DNA of 63,573 nt, filler included, from Hausera hauseri (GCA_046269625.1; 13 parts of 13 records of this genome joined end to end with filler, not necessarily neighbours in it); one strand, 5' to 3'. Shown: positions 42,468-49,209, numbered from the whole stretch's first letter. Notes: generated from the sequence alone by a model not told the origin. Made by a program: numbers and translations.

Positions 42468-43258
42468 TGATAAGTTTGAGGTGTAAGAAATAAAATAAAT
42501 ATAATTGAAAAAGTTTGAGTTCTTGAACCTCAAACTTATACTTACTTAGTTCAGTATAAATAGTTCGAGGTATGATTCTCCTCGAACTAGAATAGTTTAT
42601 TTACTCTTAAAAGCCGCCTGTGGGGTCGGCCTAGAAATCAATTTAATATGTTCGTGAATTCGATCACCAGGAGGGACACTGGTGTCTTCCCCAAATTTTA
42701 GATGAATTTGGCTTTATACGGATTTTTATGTCCGTAAGAATAATAGGGCCCTTATGTTTAGAACACTAATAAAACCTTACTACTATACAATTATTTAAGA
42801 AGGGTACTGATTATAGAAATCAATAAATAACTAAACGTACTCTTAAACTTTAATAGAACAATATGATATGAAAAATTACAATAAAAATAATCCACAAATT
42901 ACAATAGGAAAGATTACAAAAACACTTACGCGAGTGATAAGCAAGATGCATAATGAAAATTGTTGTTCTGTGTGATCAAACATGATGAGTTTATATATCC
43001 TTTTGAAGCAGACTATCTAGTTACGGTTTTGCATAAATATTTAAAGTAATCCATAGATTAATACATGAAAGTAAGATTAAACAGATCAAACGTTAGATTA
43101 ATACGTGAAAGTAAAATTAAATGGATCACACGTAAAATTAAATAGATCACAAATTAACTGTCATTAACAATTCATTGTATCTCCATTGTCATTAAAAATT
43201 CATTAATTGTCTCTCTCTCTAATCACGATGCGAAATTGAATCATTGTCAACGTCAACA
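42468..43258 (-). mobile_element. Candidate 3' LTR of element A
   Basis: Preceded by purine tract GAGGAGGGGG (43269-43260); starts TG, ends TTATCA; TATATAAA at 42997-42990, GTAAGT donor at 42929, AATAAA near 42600. Confidence 0.6.
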
Positions 43259-45043
43259 ACCCCCTCCTCAGACAATGCTGTCCGCAGCATTGCTGGGTAG
43301 GTCTCTAAGGTACCATTTTCTAGTCGATAGCAAGAAGATTCATAACGACGCCATTGGCCTCTTTTTTTAAATCTAAGTTTTAGGGTAATCGTTTCTTCTT
43401 TGGGGATCTTCTTCCTCTTCCTTTTTGATTCTGCTGTTATTGTTTGGTGTGGTACGATAAGTGGAATTGATGTATCACGAATTGATTCTTTTGGTTGCTT
43501 ATCCATATTGGAAAGTTTGTCAAGGTTAGAAGAAAGATTTGATGATGACGTAGTTGCGATATCTATTATTTGTGAATCAATATCCATAGATTCAGAAGAA
43601 ATTAAGTTAGTGTTATTGTCAGAAGGAATAGATGGTTCAGGAGGTTTATTTGGAACTTCATATATGGTTGATGTAAACTTTACATCTGATCTTTCGTTGG
43701 AGTACTCTTCAAGAGTATTATACATATCTAATAGAATACGGGCTTTTTCTTTTGTTCTTGTAGGATATTTAATATTATTGAATTTAAGGAAGATTTGTTT
43801 TTGCGTCAACGTCTTATTTGGGTTGATAAGTTCGTTGTAAAATAGGTCGCGAATACCGATTATCTGATCCATATTGAAAAGGGCGATTTGAAAATTGGTA
43901 TTAAATACAGTCAGTCCGACTATCATTTTTCCTACTAATTGATATCTAATAGTAGGCCAGATTTGGTATTGGTCGGCTTGGCCGACTAGATCTGATTCTC
44001 TAATTCCCGTTATTTGGGTATTATAGTTATCGACTCTTTCCCGAGGAGCAACAAGCTGATCAAGGATAATTTTACCGTCTAGATCCATAATTGTGATTTC
44101 TATGAGGGTAGCCGCTGATTGATTGCTTTTCATTAGATAAGCGACATTAGTAGATAAAATTACTATTTGATTTCGTGTGACTATGGGTACTCTGGTAAAA
44201 GAACACCCTGCTTCCAGTTGTGTTTTATGAGGGAGAGGTAGGCCATATGTTGGTACATCGTATTCTGGACGAGGTATAGTTTCTCGTCGGGTGACCTCGA
44301 TATATACAATAGGACTAGGTCCTCCAAAAGTTCGTAGTGTTATAGTCGCATTTTTATATAGACGTTGGTCGAGTCGGATAGTGGAGAAAGGCATAATATC
44401 CATCTTGTCTGTCATATCATTTCGGTGACTTTTACTTTTTATCTGCAAACTGGTCTTAATAATTGATAGATAAACCGACGTTGTTTTTGTAGATAGGTCT
44501 ATTAAATCAGATAATGTAGTCGTTGTATTGGGCAGTTTTATGATTAGACCTGCTCTTTGCGTTACCAGATGTCCTTTCAAATTATTTGGTATCAATGAGG
44601 CTTTGGCATAATATATATAGTCTTTTTGTTGTGTGGATTCCAAGTTGGAGGATATATTGTAGTAGAAGGACTTGGCCCTCTCTACTGTTTCGGCACCTTC
44701 TTGGACTAAAATAGAACAGATCAATAGTAACCATGGAAAACTTTTAAAAAATAAATATATGTTAGGTTGCATAAAGCTTTGCAGCCTATAATTTTTATAG
44801 TTGTTACTTTGGTAGGTTGCTAAAAATTTTGCAGCCTCATTTTTTATATGTGTGCACATATATAGTGCAACATCTATTGACGGTCGAGATAGCCGTTTAA
44901 GATTTGATAGCTTATGAGCTTGAGGGGGCGTACTAATATCATTAATTAAATCCTCGTCTTGGGGTTCTTCCCTCAATAATTTTAGTTGTTGTATAATTTT
45001 GTTGGTCTTGCGCATTCTATGTCTTACTCTACTACAATAAATT
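43219..45043 (-). CDS. Polyprotein C-terminus A: post-TM tail, internal signal/TM, cupin-like domain, inactive REX4/ISG20-like DEDDh exonuclease, Ser-rich linker, basic NLS-like tail
   Basis: Frame open to contig edge; IEITIMDLDGKIILDQLVAPRERVDNYNTQITGIRESDL matches REX4-type RVSIV..DG....D..V.P...V.DY.T..SGI...DL; catalytic DxE read as NVA. Confidence 0.75.
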
Positions 45044-46038
45044 NNNNNNNNNNNNNNNNNNNNNNNNNNNNNNNNNNNNNNNNNNNNTTAATTAATTAAN
45101 NNNNNNNNNNNNNNNNNNNNNNNNNNNNNNNNNNNNNNNNNNNAAAGAGTTGTGCAAAATGTAATGCTAATTAATAATATCAAAACAAGTTTTGCCCAGA
45201 AAGCCAAGGTAACGCAACTGGGTATTTTAAGTCTGTCAGCATATTGCATTTGTTCAAGTCTCATCACGACGTTTAGGAATTTTGAACTTTGACAAAATTT
45301 TCATTACTTTTCTCAAGCTAATATTCTTTCTAACATTTTACTGAAGTAGAAAATATCTAACATCTAGCCAATAGTCTGTGGTCACTCATATGAATTGTCA
45401 AGATTTATTTATAAGAGAATATGCAACTGTTTATTTGACGAATACATTTTTGATTGACAAAACATCAAAAAGCGCTTTAAATCGAATATTAAAAACATTA
45501 GGTCGAGAAAGTGAGCGAAAATTTTATCACATTTCCAAATTCAGACTCGTATGGGGGTAAGTATGAACAAGCGGAAATGTGTCACATTTAAAAGCTCCAA
45601 TTGCGTTATTTTAACCTTCTTGCTAAAAGTTTTTTATCATAGCATTATATTTTGCTCATATCTCTGACTGTGTTATAAAAAACCCAGATTTACAGTAAAA
45701 TTCGTTTCTTTGTTAGTTCTGTTTTTCAAAACGATTTGTTCTTAATTCGAAATAGATGAAGAAAATGTGAAAGATTTGTTCATCCACAGTTTTATATGTT
45801 CAAAGTTTTAGACATTATGTGTGCGATTTTGGTATCTTCCTAACATTTTTTACCTTATCTAGTTAAGTGTTTGACACAATTCTATTTGGCACGATATTGT
45901 TATTTCACATGAATCACTATATACAGTATTTCATTTGATGATTATTACTGAGATTACTGAGGTTAAGACTCAATTTCAAAGTTAACAAAATTTACATTTT
46001 TGTCGAATACTGATACACCAATATCTCGCTATATCGCA

Positions 46039-46905: not shown

Positions 46906-46941
46906 AATCGACGGGGTTTCGAAGAAATTGACCCCAATTTA

Positions 46942-49069
46942 TCATTGATCCAGAGGTAAAGGGAGATGTATAAATTTATCCGTAGTTTTTGATTTATATC
47001 TTATTGATTCGGGTTCAAAGACTTCATCGTCTATTACAATTGTATCTTCCACCTGGAACCTGCGTTTTCTGCCCGTTAGTGATGTTGTTGGTGCTATTCG
47101 CACCCTATCGGAGGCTGTGCTTTGCTTTATGAATTCATCATCCCATTTTAATTGGCGGTATACAGCTTGATAGCATTGCACCAAAGCGGTGCTGCGAAGG
47201 GGGAAACCCTTCGTGTCATAAAATTTTCGAGCTAATTCTTTATACGTGCTCGCTGTTAGCTGGTATCTGCGGATTACTTCCTCGTGATATAACACATCAC
47301 GTATTCCTGCAATCCGTCTGATTGGACACTTGAAATGATTTATTATCATTTCCATCACATCAGCTCCGATAACTATTTTATCTGTAATCACCTCTGTAAC
47401 TTTCCGGTGGAATTCCGTAGAGTCCATTTGGTTGATAATATTGGATTCTGTGAGACCGGTTATGTGGGTGTCGAAGTTGTTGATACGTTGTCTTGGGGTA
47501 ATAATACCATAGAAAAGTGTGTCTCCATCAAGGTTTATTATGGATACTTCTATGGGTTGCAATTGGTTCCATTGGTCATAGGCTACGTTAACAGCTGCTA
47601 TGACCAAATCATTGTTGGTGACATTTTCAATTCTTCGGTATGGGGTTGTTTTGTACTTGGCGTATTCGGGCTCAGGTAGATTAAAACACTTTCCTTCGGG
47701 TACACTGGGTAAGAATTTCTCCTTTTTGATTACTTCAAAGGCGAACATAATTCGGTTGGTAAGCGATCGAATTTTTAAGGTATTCTTTTCAATAAAGGAA
47801 TAATCGAATGCCAGGCCATGTTCTGGATCCATATTGATTAAATCCCCTTTCATAGACGTTTTTTGTCAGTGGTTTTGATATTGAATTGTCCGGTTATGCA
47901 GTAAATGTTGATGGAATGAAATCGTTCTGGAAGTATAATAATATCGTTCATATAGAGAGACGTGGCTTTCGTAATGTGAATCAGGGCCAACGATCTATTG
48001 GCCACACTATAACCTTTTAGGTTATTAGGTATTTGTTGGAGCTGCGGGTAGTTTAAACTGATCGTATGGTCATTGTGAGCTATGTGGCATGGATTGGTTG
48101 GATTGGCATTTATGAGATGCGTTTTCACATTGTTATACCAATGTTTGGAGCGATGGATCGACTGGATCTGATAGGAGGTTGATGCAGCTACTAGAAATGA
48201 AATTATCAATGTCTTTTCACACACAGTACTTAAACACAACACAACGGTTATCATGCACACCATATTGGTAATCGTCATGTTTCTCTTATACTCAATTTTA
48301 TGTGATGAGGTAACCTGATGAAGTGAGGTTATCTCTGTATCAGGGGTTGCGTACTTAGCAATCCCTAGGCTCCACCGTCAGCTGGGACTAGTTATGGCTA
48401 ACGGATTCGTTAGCTCTCGCAAGTTAATTCGTACCCAGCTTTGCCTCCTTTTGTTTCGATGTCGTTGTATTACTTTAATTGCTATTATTAATATTATCAT
48501 TATTACTATTGGGGTTATTGAACTTATTATAATTATTTCTAAGCGAGAATGCTTGTATGTAGCTCGCACTGGCTTTTAGTTGTCTTATTCTGAACTGGTT
48601 TTACTCTATGTGATGGTTCCGCTTTGTTACTTTTGGTGATCGCGGACATTACTCTTGTGGAGGTTATTTTATCATGGTCGTCCAATAATTGCAAAATAAC
48701 CGTATATTTCGTATTGGTTTCTAGAGCCGCACACGGCACTATCAAATCATCAGGAGTGATGATTCCTTTTGCTACTATAGTATCTTGCTTTTTACAACTA
48801 AATTTTATTTTTATAAAGTCGAGATCTGGTTTAACAGAGATAATTAATGCCGTGGGAGCTGCTATAATTGTTACGTTATCCCAAATGGAACGTTTTTGGC
48901 GATAGTAAAGAGCATAAGGTTTAATTAAAACAATCATTTCTTTTTTATCGGTCGAGAATTGCACGTGGCGTCGTGATCCTTTCTTGTATATCATCATATT
49001 CTCTTGGGTTCTTATATCGTATAAACATCGTCGGTCCTTTTCTATGTCTTTTATTCTTGAGTTTTCCAT
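46942..49069 (-). CDS. Polyprotein C-terminus B: FN3-like domain, TM, tail, signal/TM hairpin, cupin-like domain, inactive DEDDh exonuclease, basic tail; broken by two A-run frameshifts and one TGA
   Basis: Four ORFs chain together (48539-49069, 48378-48569, 47850-48278, 46942-47853); IPNNLKG, NVAY, IEVSIINLDG, THITGLTES, GIRD shared with A. Confidence 0.75.
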
Positions 49070-49209
49070 GTTCTTTCCGTGACAGAGAGTATTTTACCTC
49101 ATATATTTTNNNNNNNNNNNNNNNNNNNNNNNNNNNNNNNNNNNNNNNNNNNNTTAATTAATTAANNNNNNNNNNNNNNNNNNNNNNNNNNNNNNNNNNN
49201 NNNNNNNNN

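Follow-up and report, generated by a model that had tools for sequence, protein, structure and literature searches.

Probable 3' ends of Burro-like LTR retroelements in the Hausera hauseri assembly, with a last gene predicted to combine an AlkB-like and a catalytically dead ISG20/REX4-like domain

The locus at positions 42468 to 49109 of a 63,573-nucleotide stretch of the Hausera hauseri assembly (GCA_046269625.1), the whole of which is called the window here, raises the question of what kind of element carries a nuclease fold without its active site at its end, and how such a protein is made. The window consists of 13 contigs of 4-6 kb each with N spacers between them, and the locus spans parts of two of them, contigs A and B. 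According to the original prediction, made from the sequence alone, both are 3' ends of a new family of long terminal repeat (LTR) retroelements, whose single polyprotein closes with a membrane-linked, catalytically dead nuclease and a cupin-like domain. The analysis presented here leads to a modified account, in which A represents, and B likely represents, the 3' end of a multi-copy LTR element that is likely Burro-like, with a last gene for a predicted AlkB-like plus dead ISG20/REX4-like protein that is likely an RNA-binding accessory; we give this account as a whole a probability of roughly 0.68. The two contigs are:

40061-45043: contig A
45144-49109: contig B

Contigs A and B are homologous, as predicted, with 25% identity over 238 amino acids in the nuclease part (E 6e-20) and a second match around the motif IPNNLKG (E 2e-6). 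Their observed/expected CpG ratio is near 1.0, as in most contigs of the window; CpG depletion occurs in two other contigs (0.54 and 0.36), one of which holds a retroviral integrase and envelope gene (env). This suggests a non-vertebrate, probably invertebrate, organism whose DNA was sequenced along with that of a vertebrate, probably a fish.

Three features identify contig A as the 3' portion of an LTR retroelement: a primer-binding site in other copies, a polypurine tract and repetitiveness. The features of its LTR are:

42468..43258, minus strand: 3' LTR of A, 791 bp, TG..CA, placed by the depth step and the loose end with a primer-binding site at 42468
43260..43269, minus strand: polypurine tract of A, 10 purines, one base before the LTR, read from the sequence
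42991..42997, minus strand: TATA-like box, the sole pattern match in the LTR, putative in function
42929 and 42545, minus strand: GTAAGT sites, read from the sequence
42596..42601, minus strand: AATAAA, the sole copy in the LTR, putative poly(A) signal

For depth and ends, contigs of two public runs (X1 and X2) were placed on contig A, 2,572 from X1 and 261 from X2, with those of other repeats near 40400 and 41900 counted in. Summed contig depth, which is a sign of repetitiveness and not a copy number, is about 4-14 in X1 over most of the flank, whereas most of 42468-45043 reaches hundreds to thousands, the minimum inside the element being 29-73 at 42900-43233. By this depth in X1 and X2, element A is dispersed and multi-copy, and the high depth spans its open reading frame (ORF) too. 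The 5' edge of the LTR is marked by one contig that differs from 43259-42930 at a single position and has 334 non-matching letters ahead of the LTR start. At the 3' edge, 3 of the 157 X1 contigs on 42380-42660 diverge at exactly 42468 into the same 11 letters (agreement 1.0), which start one base past the terminal CA on the element strand. Ten of these 11 letters are complementary to the 3' ends of tRNAs typed Met_CAU in the retrieved part of supplement file 2 of PMC13524379, where the same 10 letters also end two tRNA entries typed 'others'. Since letters of the primer-binding type stand at the exact LTR end in three contigs, other copies of A own a 5' LTR and a tRNA-Met-type primer-binding site. 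The original prediction had placed the LTR end at 42468 and had pointed to a 5' LTR with a primer-binding site as something to be sought elsewhere in the assembly data; for A, the three X1 contigs bear out both. An LTR end at 42482 was also considered and is ruled out, as the run contigs place the end at 42468. Two further short, very high-depth repeats lie in the flank of A, at 40395-40561 and about 41900-41950.

The corresponding unit of contig B is less well delimited:

46088..46900, minus strand: putative LTR of B, start near 46894, end near 46231 or 46098-46088, ends uncertain
46634 TATA, 46559 ATG, 46549 donor (phase 1), 46361 and 46351 AATAAA, minus strand: signals of the putative LTR of B, read from the sequence

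A 15-mer near the start is common to LTR A and the B unit (8 of 1000 resampled controls reach 15), TATA, GTAAGT and AATAAA follow in the same order as in LTR A, and no clear polypurine tract was seen before the B unit. On these sequence features the B unit is plausibly an LTR with uncertain ends, and contig B is very likely the 3' end of an LTR retroelement. The predicted TG..CA unit of about 0.8 kb with TATA and GTAAGT, and with it the description of both contigs as LTR-element 3' ends, is thus firm for A and keeps this uncertainty for B. The same 9-mer is found shortly after the end of LTR A (about 42456) and shortly after one candidate end of B (about 46082), by chance or through a target preference.

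The protein-coding part of the two contigs is laid out as follows:

43219..45042, minus strand: ORF A, 607 amino acids, open to the contig edge, with polyprotein tail, acceptor/hydrophobic stretch, pseudo-AlkB domain, dead DEDDh domain and disordered basic tail
44761..45042, minus strand: A, probable cytosolic tail of the giant polyprotein, preceded by the basic cluster and the end of the membrane anchor; layout like the tails of L001, P0159 and L004 (relatives described below), by eye
44704..44760, minus strand: A, hydrophobic 19-mer (hydropathy 2.02) over a polypyrimidine tract and acceptor-like site (first exon base 44705, phase 1)
44284..44700, minus strand: A, AlkB-like double-stranded beta-helix without HxD/H/RxxxxxR (pseudo-AlkB), from predicted structure and motifs
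43669..44169, minus strand: A, ISG20/REX4-type DEDDh fold with D,E,D,H,D replaced by S,N,T,T,K, from structure match, alignment and profile
43222..43660, minus strand: A, low-complexity tail with KRKRKK, resembling a nuclear localization signal (NLS), putative in function
48539..49093, minus strand: B, part of the ectodomain that follows the integrase (tandem FN3-like, low confidence), from the local score against L001/P0158
48381..48575, minus strand: B, basic stop-transfer and tail behind a membrane anchor of hydropathy 3.0; a frameshift lies near 48575-48540 and an in-frame TGA at 48380-48378
47850..48377, minus strand: B, rest of the tail, hydrophobic stretch over an acceptor-like site (first exon base 48190, phase 1) and start of the pseudo-AlkB domain; frameshift near 47865-47850
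46942..47865, minus strand: B, end of the pseudo-AlkB domain, dead DEDDh domain and RKRR tail, from the alignment with A

ORF A is a single minus-strand frame that is intact over 607 codons, runs into the LTR and is open to the contig edge, as had been stated. In B the same content is split into four pieces by two frameshifts and the TGA. An anchor with basic stop-transfer had been claimed for both contigs; the anchor itself is visible in B, whereas contig A holds only its last residues and the basic cluster. The basic tails KRKR and RKRR are present in A and B, and basic clusters occur within the last 200 amino acids of 25 of 43 relatives. In a Pfam search of the four A/B frames no family scored above the cut-off. 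Programmed readthrough was considered at the TGA-CGG of B, the context of which resembles a readthrough motif, and dropped, the downstream hairpin (z -0.94; 32 of 200 shuffles) not being beyond chance.

A search of 1.84 billion proteins with a three-sequence profile gave 503 matches at E <= 0.001, and the best 150 of these were analysed. Of the 151 proteins P0001-P0151, 61 are matched by a profile of the N-terminal domain plus linker (43 of these by construction), and about 60 metagenomic relatives, among the matches listed, carry the AlkB-like and DEDDh pair. AlphaFold, given 44 members as input, modelled the part encoded by 44700-43660 with a predicted local distance difference test (pLDDT) score of 92. 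Model residues 178-344 match human ISG20 (Z 18.6, root-mean-square deviation 2.5, 162 aligned), and residues 1-139 match ALKBH6 (Z 12.6), Ofd2 (12.5) and ALKBH7 (12.4) with root-mean-square deviations of 2.5-3.0 over 133-136 aligned residues; other 2-oxoglutarate (2OG) oxygenases follow at Z 10-11. Foldseek agrees with both fold matches. The best matches of the family profile are ISG20L2 (3e-32), ISG20 (3e-20) and SDN1, and Pfam RNase_T was found in 20 of the 44 members. In a viral fold library each domain was matched separately and none of the matches spanned both (top TMq <= 0.38). A scan of viral contigs with alignment A1 gave 110 pattern matches, none of which was confirmed. By its model the nuclease domain is of the ISG20/REX4-type DEDDh fold, as had been predicted, and the N-terminal beta domain is best described as AlkB-like; the beta-rich domain of the original prediction is real but not a plain cupin.

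The alignment of the 44 members shows the catalytic residues D, E, D/E, H, D intact in 25, lost in 18 (A included) and truncated in one, and they are also lost in B, as read from the alignment. The active relatives carry the His, i.e. they are of the DEDDh type. The claim of a catalytically dead nuclease therefore applies to A and B but not to the family in general. Judged by motif and alignment, no conserved column for the AlkB motifs HxD/E..H (iron) and RxxxxxR (2OG) exists in the 44 aligned members; HxD/E occurs in 10 of them at scattered, non-aligned positions. Conservation is seen instead at a Tyr, Pro-Asn, Lys, Arg, His and Glu (26-40 of 44), possibly as parts of a remodelled pocket; the conserved His is replaced in A.

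A quick tree of 133 nuclease domains was computed, leaving out the near-duplicates P0153-P0157 and matches below 125 amino acids. A branch with support 96 separates all 59 rows with the N-terminal domain, together with 18 rows that lack it, from 56 cellular- or bacterial-looking rows. A, B and P0002 form a group with support 97, the nuclease domain of B being 65% identical to that of P0002, and most dead members form a 34-row group with support 89, where long-branch attraction is possible. The counts of intact and lost sites given above are those of the alignment, as the active/dead labels of the tree follow a rough Exo I pattern and mislabel some rows, e.g. P0029. Two variants were seen among the matches: P0061 adds a C-terminal RING finger to the cargo, and P0012, P0021, P0032 and P0060, of 730-800 amino acids, have a hydrophobic signal-like start and four tandem REX4-like domains and stand outside the cargo family.

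The link to a reverse transcriptase comes from a metagenome scan, in which 260 pattern matches led to four loci (L001-L004). L001 contains an ORF of more than 3,012 amino acids with, in order, a mononegavirus-type fusion protein (env), protease, reverse transcriptase, RNase H and integrase, and after the integrase a signal, an ectodomain, an anchor, a basic tail, a stop, a 222-amino-acid ORF and the cargo ORF. L004 likewise shows anchor, tail and stop ahead of the cargo ORF; L002 and L003 are too short to judge. The full form of the L001 polyprotein, P0158 (3,700 amino acids), adds two CCHC knuckles and has a weak ubiquitin match (E 0.018) and no ankyrin, and a relative, P0159 (4,057 amino acids), adds a SUMO-like domain and ankyrins. 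The env precedes pol in P0158, P0159 and P0160, with the order gag-env-pol in P0158 and P0159, and no Pfam dUTPase match was found in the three proteins. The frame upstream in B matches the L001/P0158 ectodomain with a local score of 78, which 0 of 2000 shuffles reach and for which the score of 82 between P0158 and P0159 serves as yardstick. The ectodomain model of L001 has a pLDDT of 47, and its listed matches are nearly all FN3 (tandem). The comparison with Burro made in the original prediction proves apt, a relative of the cargo standing behind a giant gag-env-pol ORF in L001. As reverse transcriptase and integrase were seen in L001 and not on contigs A or B, A and B are assigned by association, and with good probability, to the Burro-like gag-env-pol class of Ty3/gypsy elements.

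The 222-amino-acid ORF of L001 (9207-9875), between polyprotein and cargo, is helical, has an acceptor-like TTTTAG directly before its ATG and has no Pfam match. Elsewhere in the window, 54561-58824 (minus strand) is a decayed gypsy pol and the best match of the window to P0158-P0160 (29-40% identity; reverse transcriptase E 1e-26), where, as in L001, a signal-like stretch follows the integrase in frame; perhaps it is part of a related element of the same host.

How the cargo is expressed was judged from the relatives and from the sequence ahead of the cargo. Across the family the cargo is, from its sequences, mostly a separate Met-started ORF: 42 of 43 predicted relatives start with Met, only 3 of 43 have a hydrophobic N-terminus, and in L001 and L004 a stop stands between the upstream tail and the cargo ORF. 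In A and B the frame from anchor tail to cargo has 0 stops in 109 codons and 1 in 110, respectively, versus about 8 expected, and the last 40 codons before the cargo would be open by chance with a probability of 0.04 (A) and 0.03 (B). Because this openness exceeds chance, fusion of the cargo to the polyprotein tail is probably real in the A/B lineage. A cargo inside a single polyprotein, as claimed originally, thus applies to that lineage and not to most of the family.

A second route is suggested by splice signals, for which acceptors were scored with a simple heuristic of our own. Read in frame, a T-rich tract that ends in YAG gives the hydrophobic stretch, and the best acceptor-like site lies 104-245 nucleotides before the IPN motif in five of six elements (A, B, L001, L002 and L003). 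Its rank is 1 of 34 (also 1 of 59) in A, tied first of 48 in B, and 1 of 32, 37 and 38 in L001, L002 and L003, respectively; in L001 the site precedes the ATG by two bases. Past the acceptor, neither A nor B has an ATG in frame, and in each of the two LTRs the first ATG to follow the predicted start site lies in a short open exon that ends at the first GTAAGT:

42930..42951, minus strand: A, predicted ATG mini-exon, 7 codons plus 1 base, ending at the first GTAAGT donor (42929); it would act in the 5' LTR copy

The mini-exon phase is 1, as is that of the acceptor, which has a chance probability of about 0.09 (A) and 0.12 (B). From the open frame and these signals, spliced and fused routes are likely both used. 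The predicted internal hydrophobic signal or hairpin exists as a hydrophobic stretch, but it overlaps the top-scoring acceptor and is absent from 40 of 43 relatives, and the membrane link of the cargo is doubtful because the stretch is a polypyrimidine tract plus acceptor read in frame. One X1 contig ends exactly at 42930, the predicted donor; this could equally be a graph merge 30 bases upstream, and we regard it as coincidence.

Several results weigh against the account given so far. Neither contig A nor contig B carries a reverse transcriptase or integrase, only one of the four fetched loci reaches pol, and the link thus depends on one relative, L001, which belongs to an active-site clade about 22% identical to P0001-type dead members. 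The B ectodomain piece is not significant against P0159 (520 of 2000 shuffles reach the score), reaches E 0.065 against a two-sequence profile, and E 5.7 with a three-protein C-terminal profile, to which P0160 contributes nothing in this region, as it lacks it. No target-site duplication was seen, the contigs being too short for paired LTRs, and the LTR ends of B are uncertain. On the side of splicing, the best upstream acceptor-like site of L004 ranks only 5 of 54, AT-rich spacers score high as acceptors anyway, and a search of the 1.5 kb that follow the ORF in L001-L004, where the cargo has its own ATG, gave no GTAAG[T/A] donor. The hydrophobic stretch is also similar as protein, by eye, in B and P0002 and may be a true membrane signal.

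This last point leads to the rival explanation that survives best, improbable as we take it to be: the cargo would exist solely as the end of the giant polyprotein, a genuine membrane signal or hairpin would stand ahead of it, and chance would account for the matches to GTAAGT and to acceptors. The open frame from tail to cargo in A and, one TGA aside, in B speaks for it, as do a hydropathy of about 2.0 in A, B and P0002 and the fact that internal signal sequences do occur in such polyproteins. It fits poorly, however, with the Met-started relatives without hydrophobic N-terminus, the stops of L001 and L004 and the matching donor and acceptor phases of both LTRs; judged by topology, a protein that binds nucleic acid and bears an NLS would end up in the lumen of the endoplasmic reticulum if A crossed the membrane once more, and, as weak evidence, no fused form of 1,524-4,350 amino acids was present among 3,419 candidates. 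Distinctly less probable is that the cargo of A and B is a decaying, functionless relic of a once-active accessory nuclease. Both active sites are gone, the AlkB-domain His is replaced in A, B is frameshifted and dead members sit on long branches, but the dead versions are deep and diverse in the tree with intact ORFs, the frame of A has remained whole over its entire length, and the core motifs IPN, PR and GIRD are conserved at only 25-34% identity, which neutral decay would not preserve. That A and B are host genes or a non-LTR or DNA element next to unrelated 0.8-kb repeats, for which the missing pol on both contigs could be cited, is very unlikely and for A close to refuted, given the primer-binding site at the exact LTR end, the polypurine tract at its exact start, ORF A entering the LTR, repetitive depth across that ORF, the separation from cellular REX4-like proteins (77 versus 56 rows) and the gene context of L001.

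Under the preferred account, of a Burro-like element with a spliced and a fused form of its accessory protein, transcription would start in the 5' LTR and the ATG mini-exon would probably be spliced at GTAAGT onto the acceptor before the AlkB domain; exact junctions are predicted, 42930 to 44705 in A and 46550 to 48190 in B. The spliced product in A would be a soluble protein of about 500 amino acids with an NLS-like tail. Unspliced RNA of the A/B lineage would, with somewhat greater probability, give a second, polyprotein-borne form through the frame open from the tail, and this form could travel with the particle. As to function, relatives with intact sites might trim or destroy RNA, e.g. 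small RNAs or replication by-products, a suggestion made tentatively. Equally tentative is the analogy that the dead A/B form would keep the two RNA-binding surfaces and, as a shield or decoy, guard the RNA of the element from host silencing through small RNAs or methylation. It is drawn because dead DEDD proteins of the PIWI-interacting RNA (piRNA) pathway retain RNA binding without cutting (retrieved part of PMC5408684), the active AlkB of an orchid gypsy element is proposed to counter control by N6-methyladenosine (m6A) (retrieved part of PMC9289625), and m6A-marked viral RNA is reported to be selectively degraded by ISG20 (retrieved part of PMC7046284). Alternatives are 3'-end processing or RNA packaging. 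A wider scenario, which we consider unlikely as a whole, would see an old and widespread invertebrate group of env-carrying gypsy elements, similar to complex retroviruses, that uses LTR mini-exon splicing to express an accessory in which an AlkB fold that reads modified RNA is fused to an ISG20-like nuclease, an antiviral toolkit captured and turned against host silencing; one lineage would have disarmed both enzymes, welded the protein to the polyprotein and packaged it as an RNA shield.

Accessory genes of retroelements are the clearest record of the host defences they faced, and few are known outside vertebrate retroviruses. In this family natural active and dead versions stand side by side, and the role of catalysis is testable with small natural proteins. 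The unannotated 3' end of Burro-like elements is also filled in, with an FN3-like membrane protein followed by accessory ORFs.

Other features of the window are less closely related to the element:

9012-14586, minus strand: ORFs of 1,537 and 192 amino acids with internal repeats (spacings 1,230 and 2,085 nucleotides) and paired hydrophobic signal-like stretches; no Pfam family; possibly part of another giant element
17634-18599, minus strand: IRS-type PTB domain (E 3e-14) in a frame of 321 codons without interruption; host gene
21745-23059: fragments without Pfam match, which we take, by eye, to resemble Polinton-type polymerase regions
31823-35778: CpG-depleted contig with a vertebrate-like retroviral integrase and env (TLV_coat E 4e-11); fragment of an endogenous retrovirus that probably belongs to a co-sequenced fish
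60764-61579, minus strand: P-loop ORF without Pfam match, presumably similar, by eye, to CRESS-virus Rep helicases

Among known systems, Burro/GYPSM1, a giant Ty3/gypsy element of planarians whose layout is described in section 7 of PMC6431247, is close to the relatives L001/P0158 and P0159: alike are one giant ORF, CCHC knuckles, a ubiquitin/SUMO-like domain, ankyrins (P0159), accessory ORFs and an env of mononegavirus type placed in frame between gag and pol. In contrast, that section names no exonuclease, AlkB-like or FN3-like domain. The comparison is one of relatives, as only the 3' ends of A and B, with an LTR of 0.8 kb in A, were read. Burro is also named once in the retrieved part of PMC11410931. 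The errantiviruses of GAG-ENV-POL order with HSV/gB-type env in the retrieved part of PMC13524379 share the gene order of L001, and by eye the L001 env resembles the row Smed_errantivirus_1 in supplement file 3. The primer-binding sites of the table there include tRNA-Met types, six Schmidtea rows of the retrieved supplement list none, and the retrieved main text contains 0 occurrences of exonuclease, nuclease, AlkB or fibronectin.

The cargo itself has partial counterparts. The ORF3 of the bdelloid elements Juno and Vesta (retrieved part of PMC5408684) is likewise a DnaQ-family exonuclease as a 3' accessory ORF of an animal LTR element, and a DnaQ-like domain is listed, citing rotifer work among others, in the retrieved part of PMC6338049. 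As described there for Juno and Vesta, ORF3 is an RNase D-like DEDDy protein with intact residues and without partner domain, whereas the cargo is a DEDDh protein of the ISG20/REX4 branch with a pseudo-AlkB partner and with active and dead lineages. The AlkB m6A demethylase of an orchid Ty3/gypsy element (PMC9289625) is similar in being an AlkB fold encoded by an extra ORF of a large gypsy element; according to the retrieved part of that paper it keeps HxD/E..H and RxxxxxR and is active, unlike the nuclease-fused domain of A and B, which lacks both and belongs to an animal lineage. The dead DEDD proteins Maelstrom and EXD1 (retrieved part of PMC5408684) also keep a nuclease fold without catalysis as an RNA-binding module, but they are host-encoded and of other DEDD branches, and their likeness to the cargo is one of fold only. 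Exuperantia appears at Z 10.3 in the structure search of the cargo model. The literature search returned no description of an AlkB-like plus DEDDh cargo, although the original Burro description or the Repbase GYPSM1/Burro entries may annotate the ORF. Of the new LTR family proposed originally, the cargo and its lineage are retained as new, but the class of element is a known one; the accessory family and its expression scheme are apparently undescribed. Two RNA-processing folds that had been reported separately in LTR elements, as the rotifer DEDDy exonuclease and the active orchid AlkB, are here found paired.

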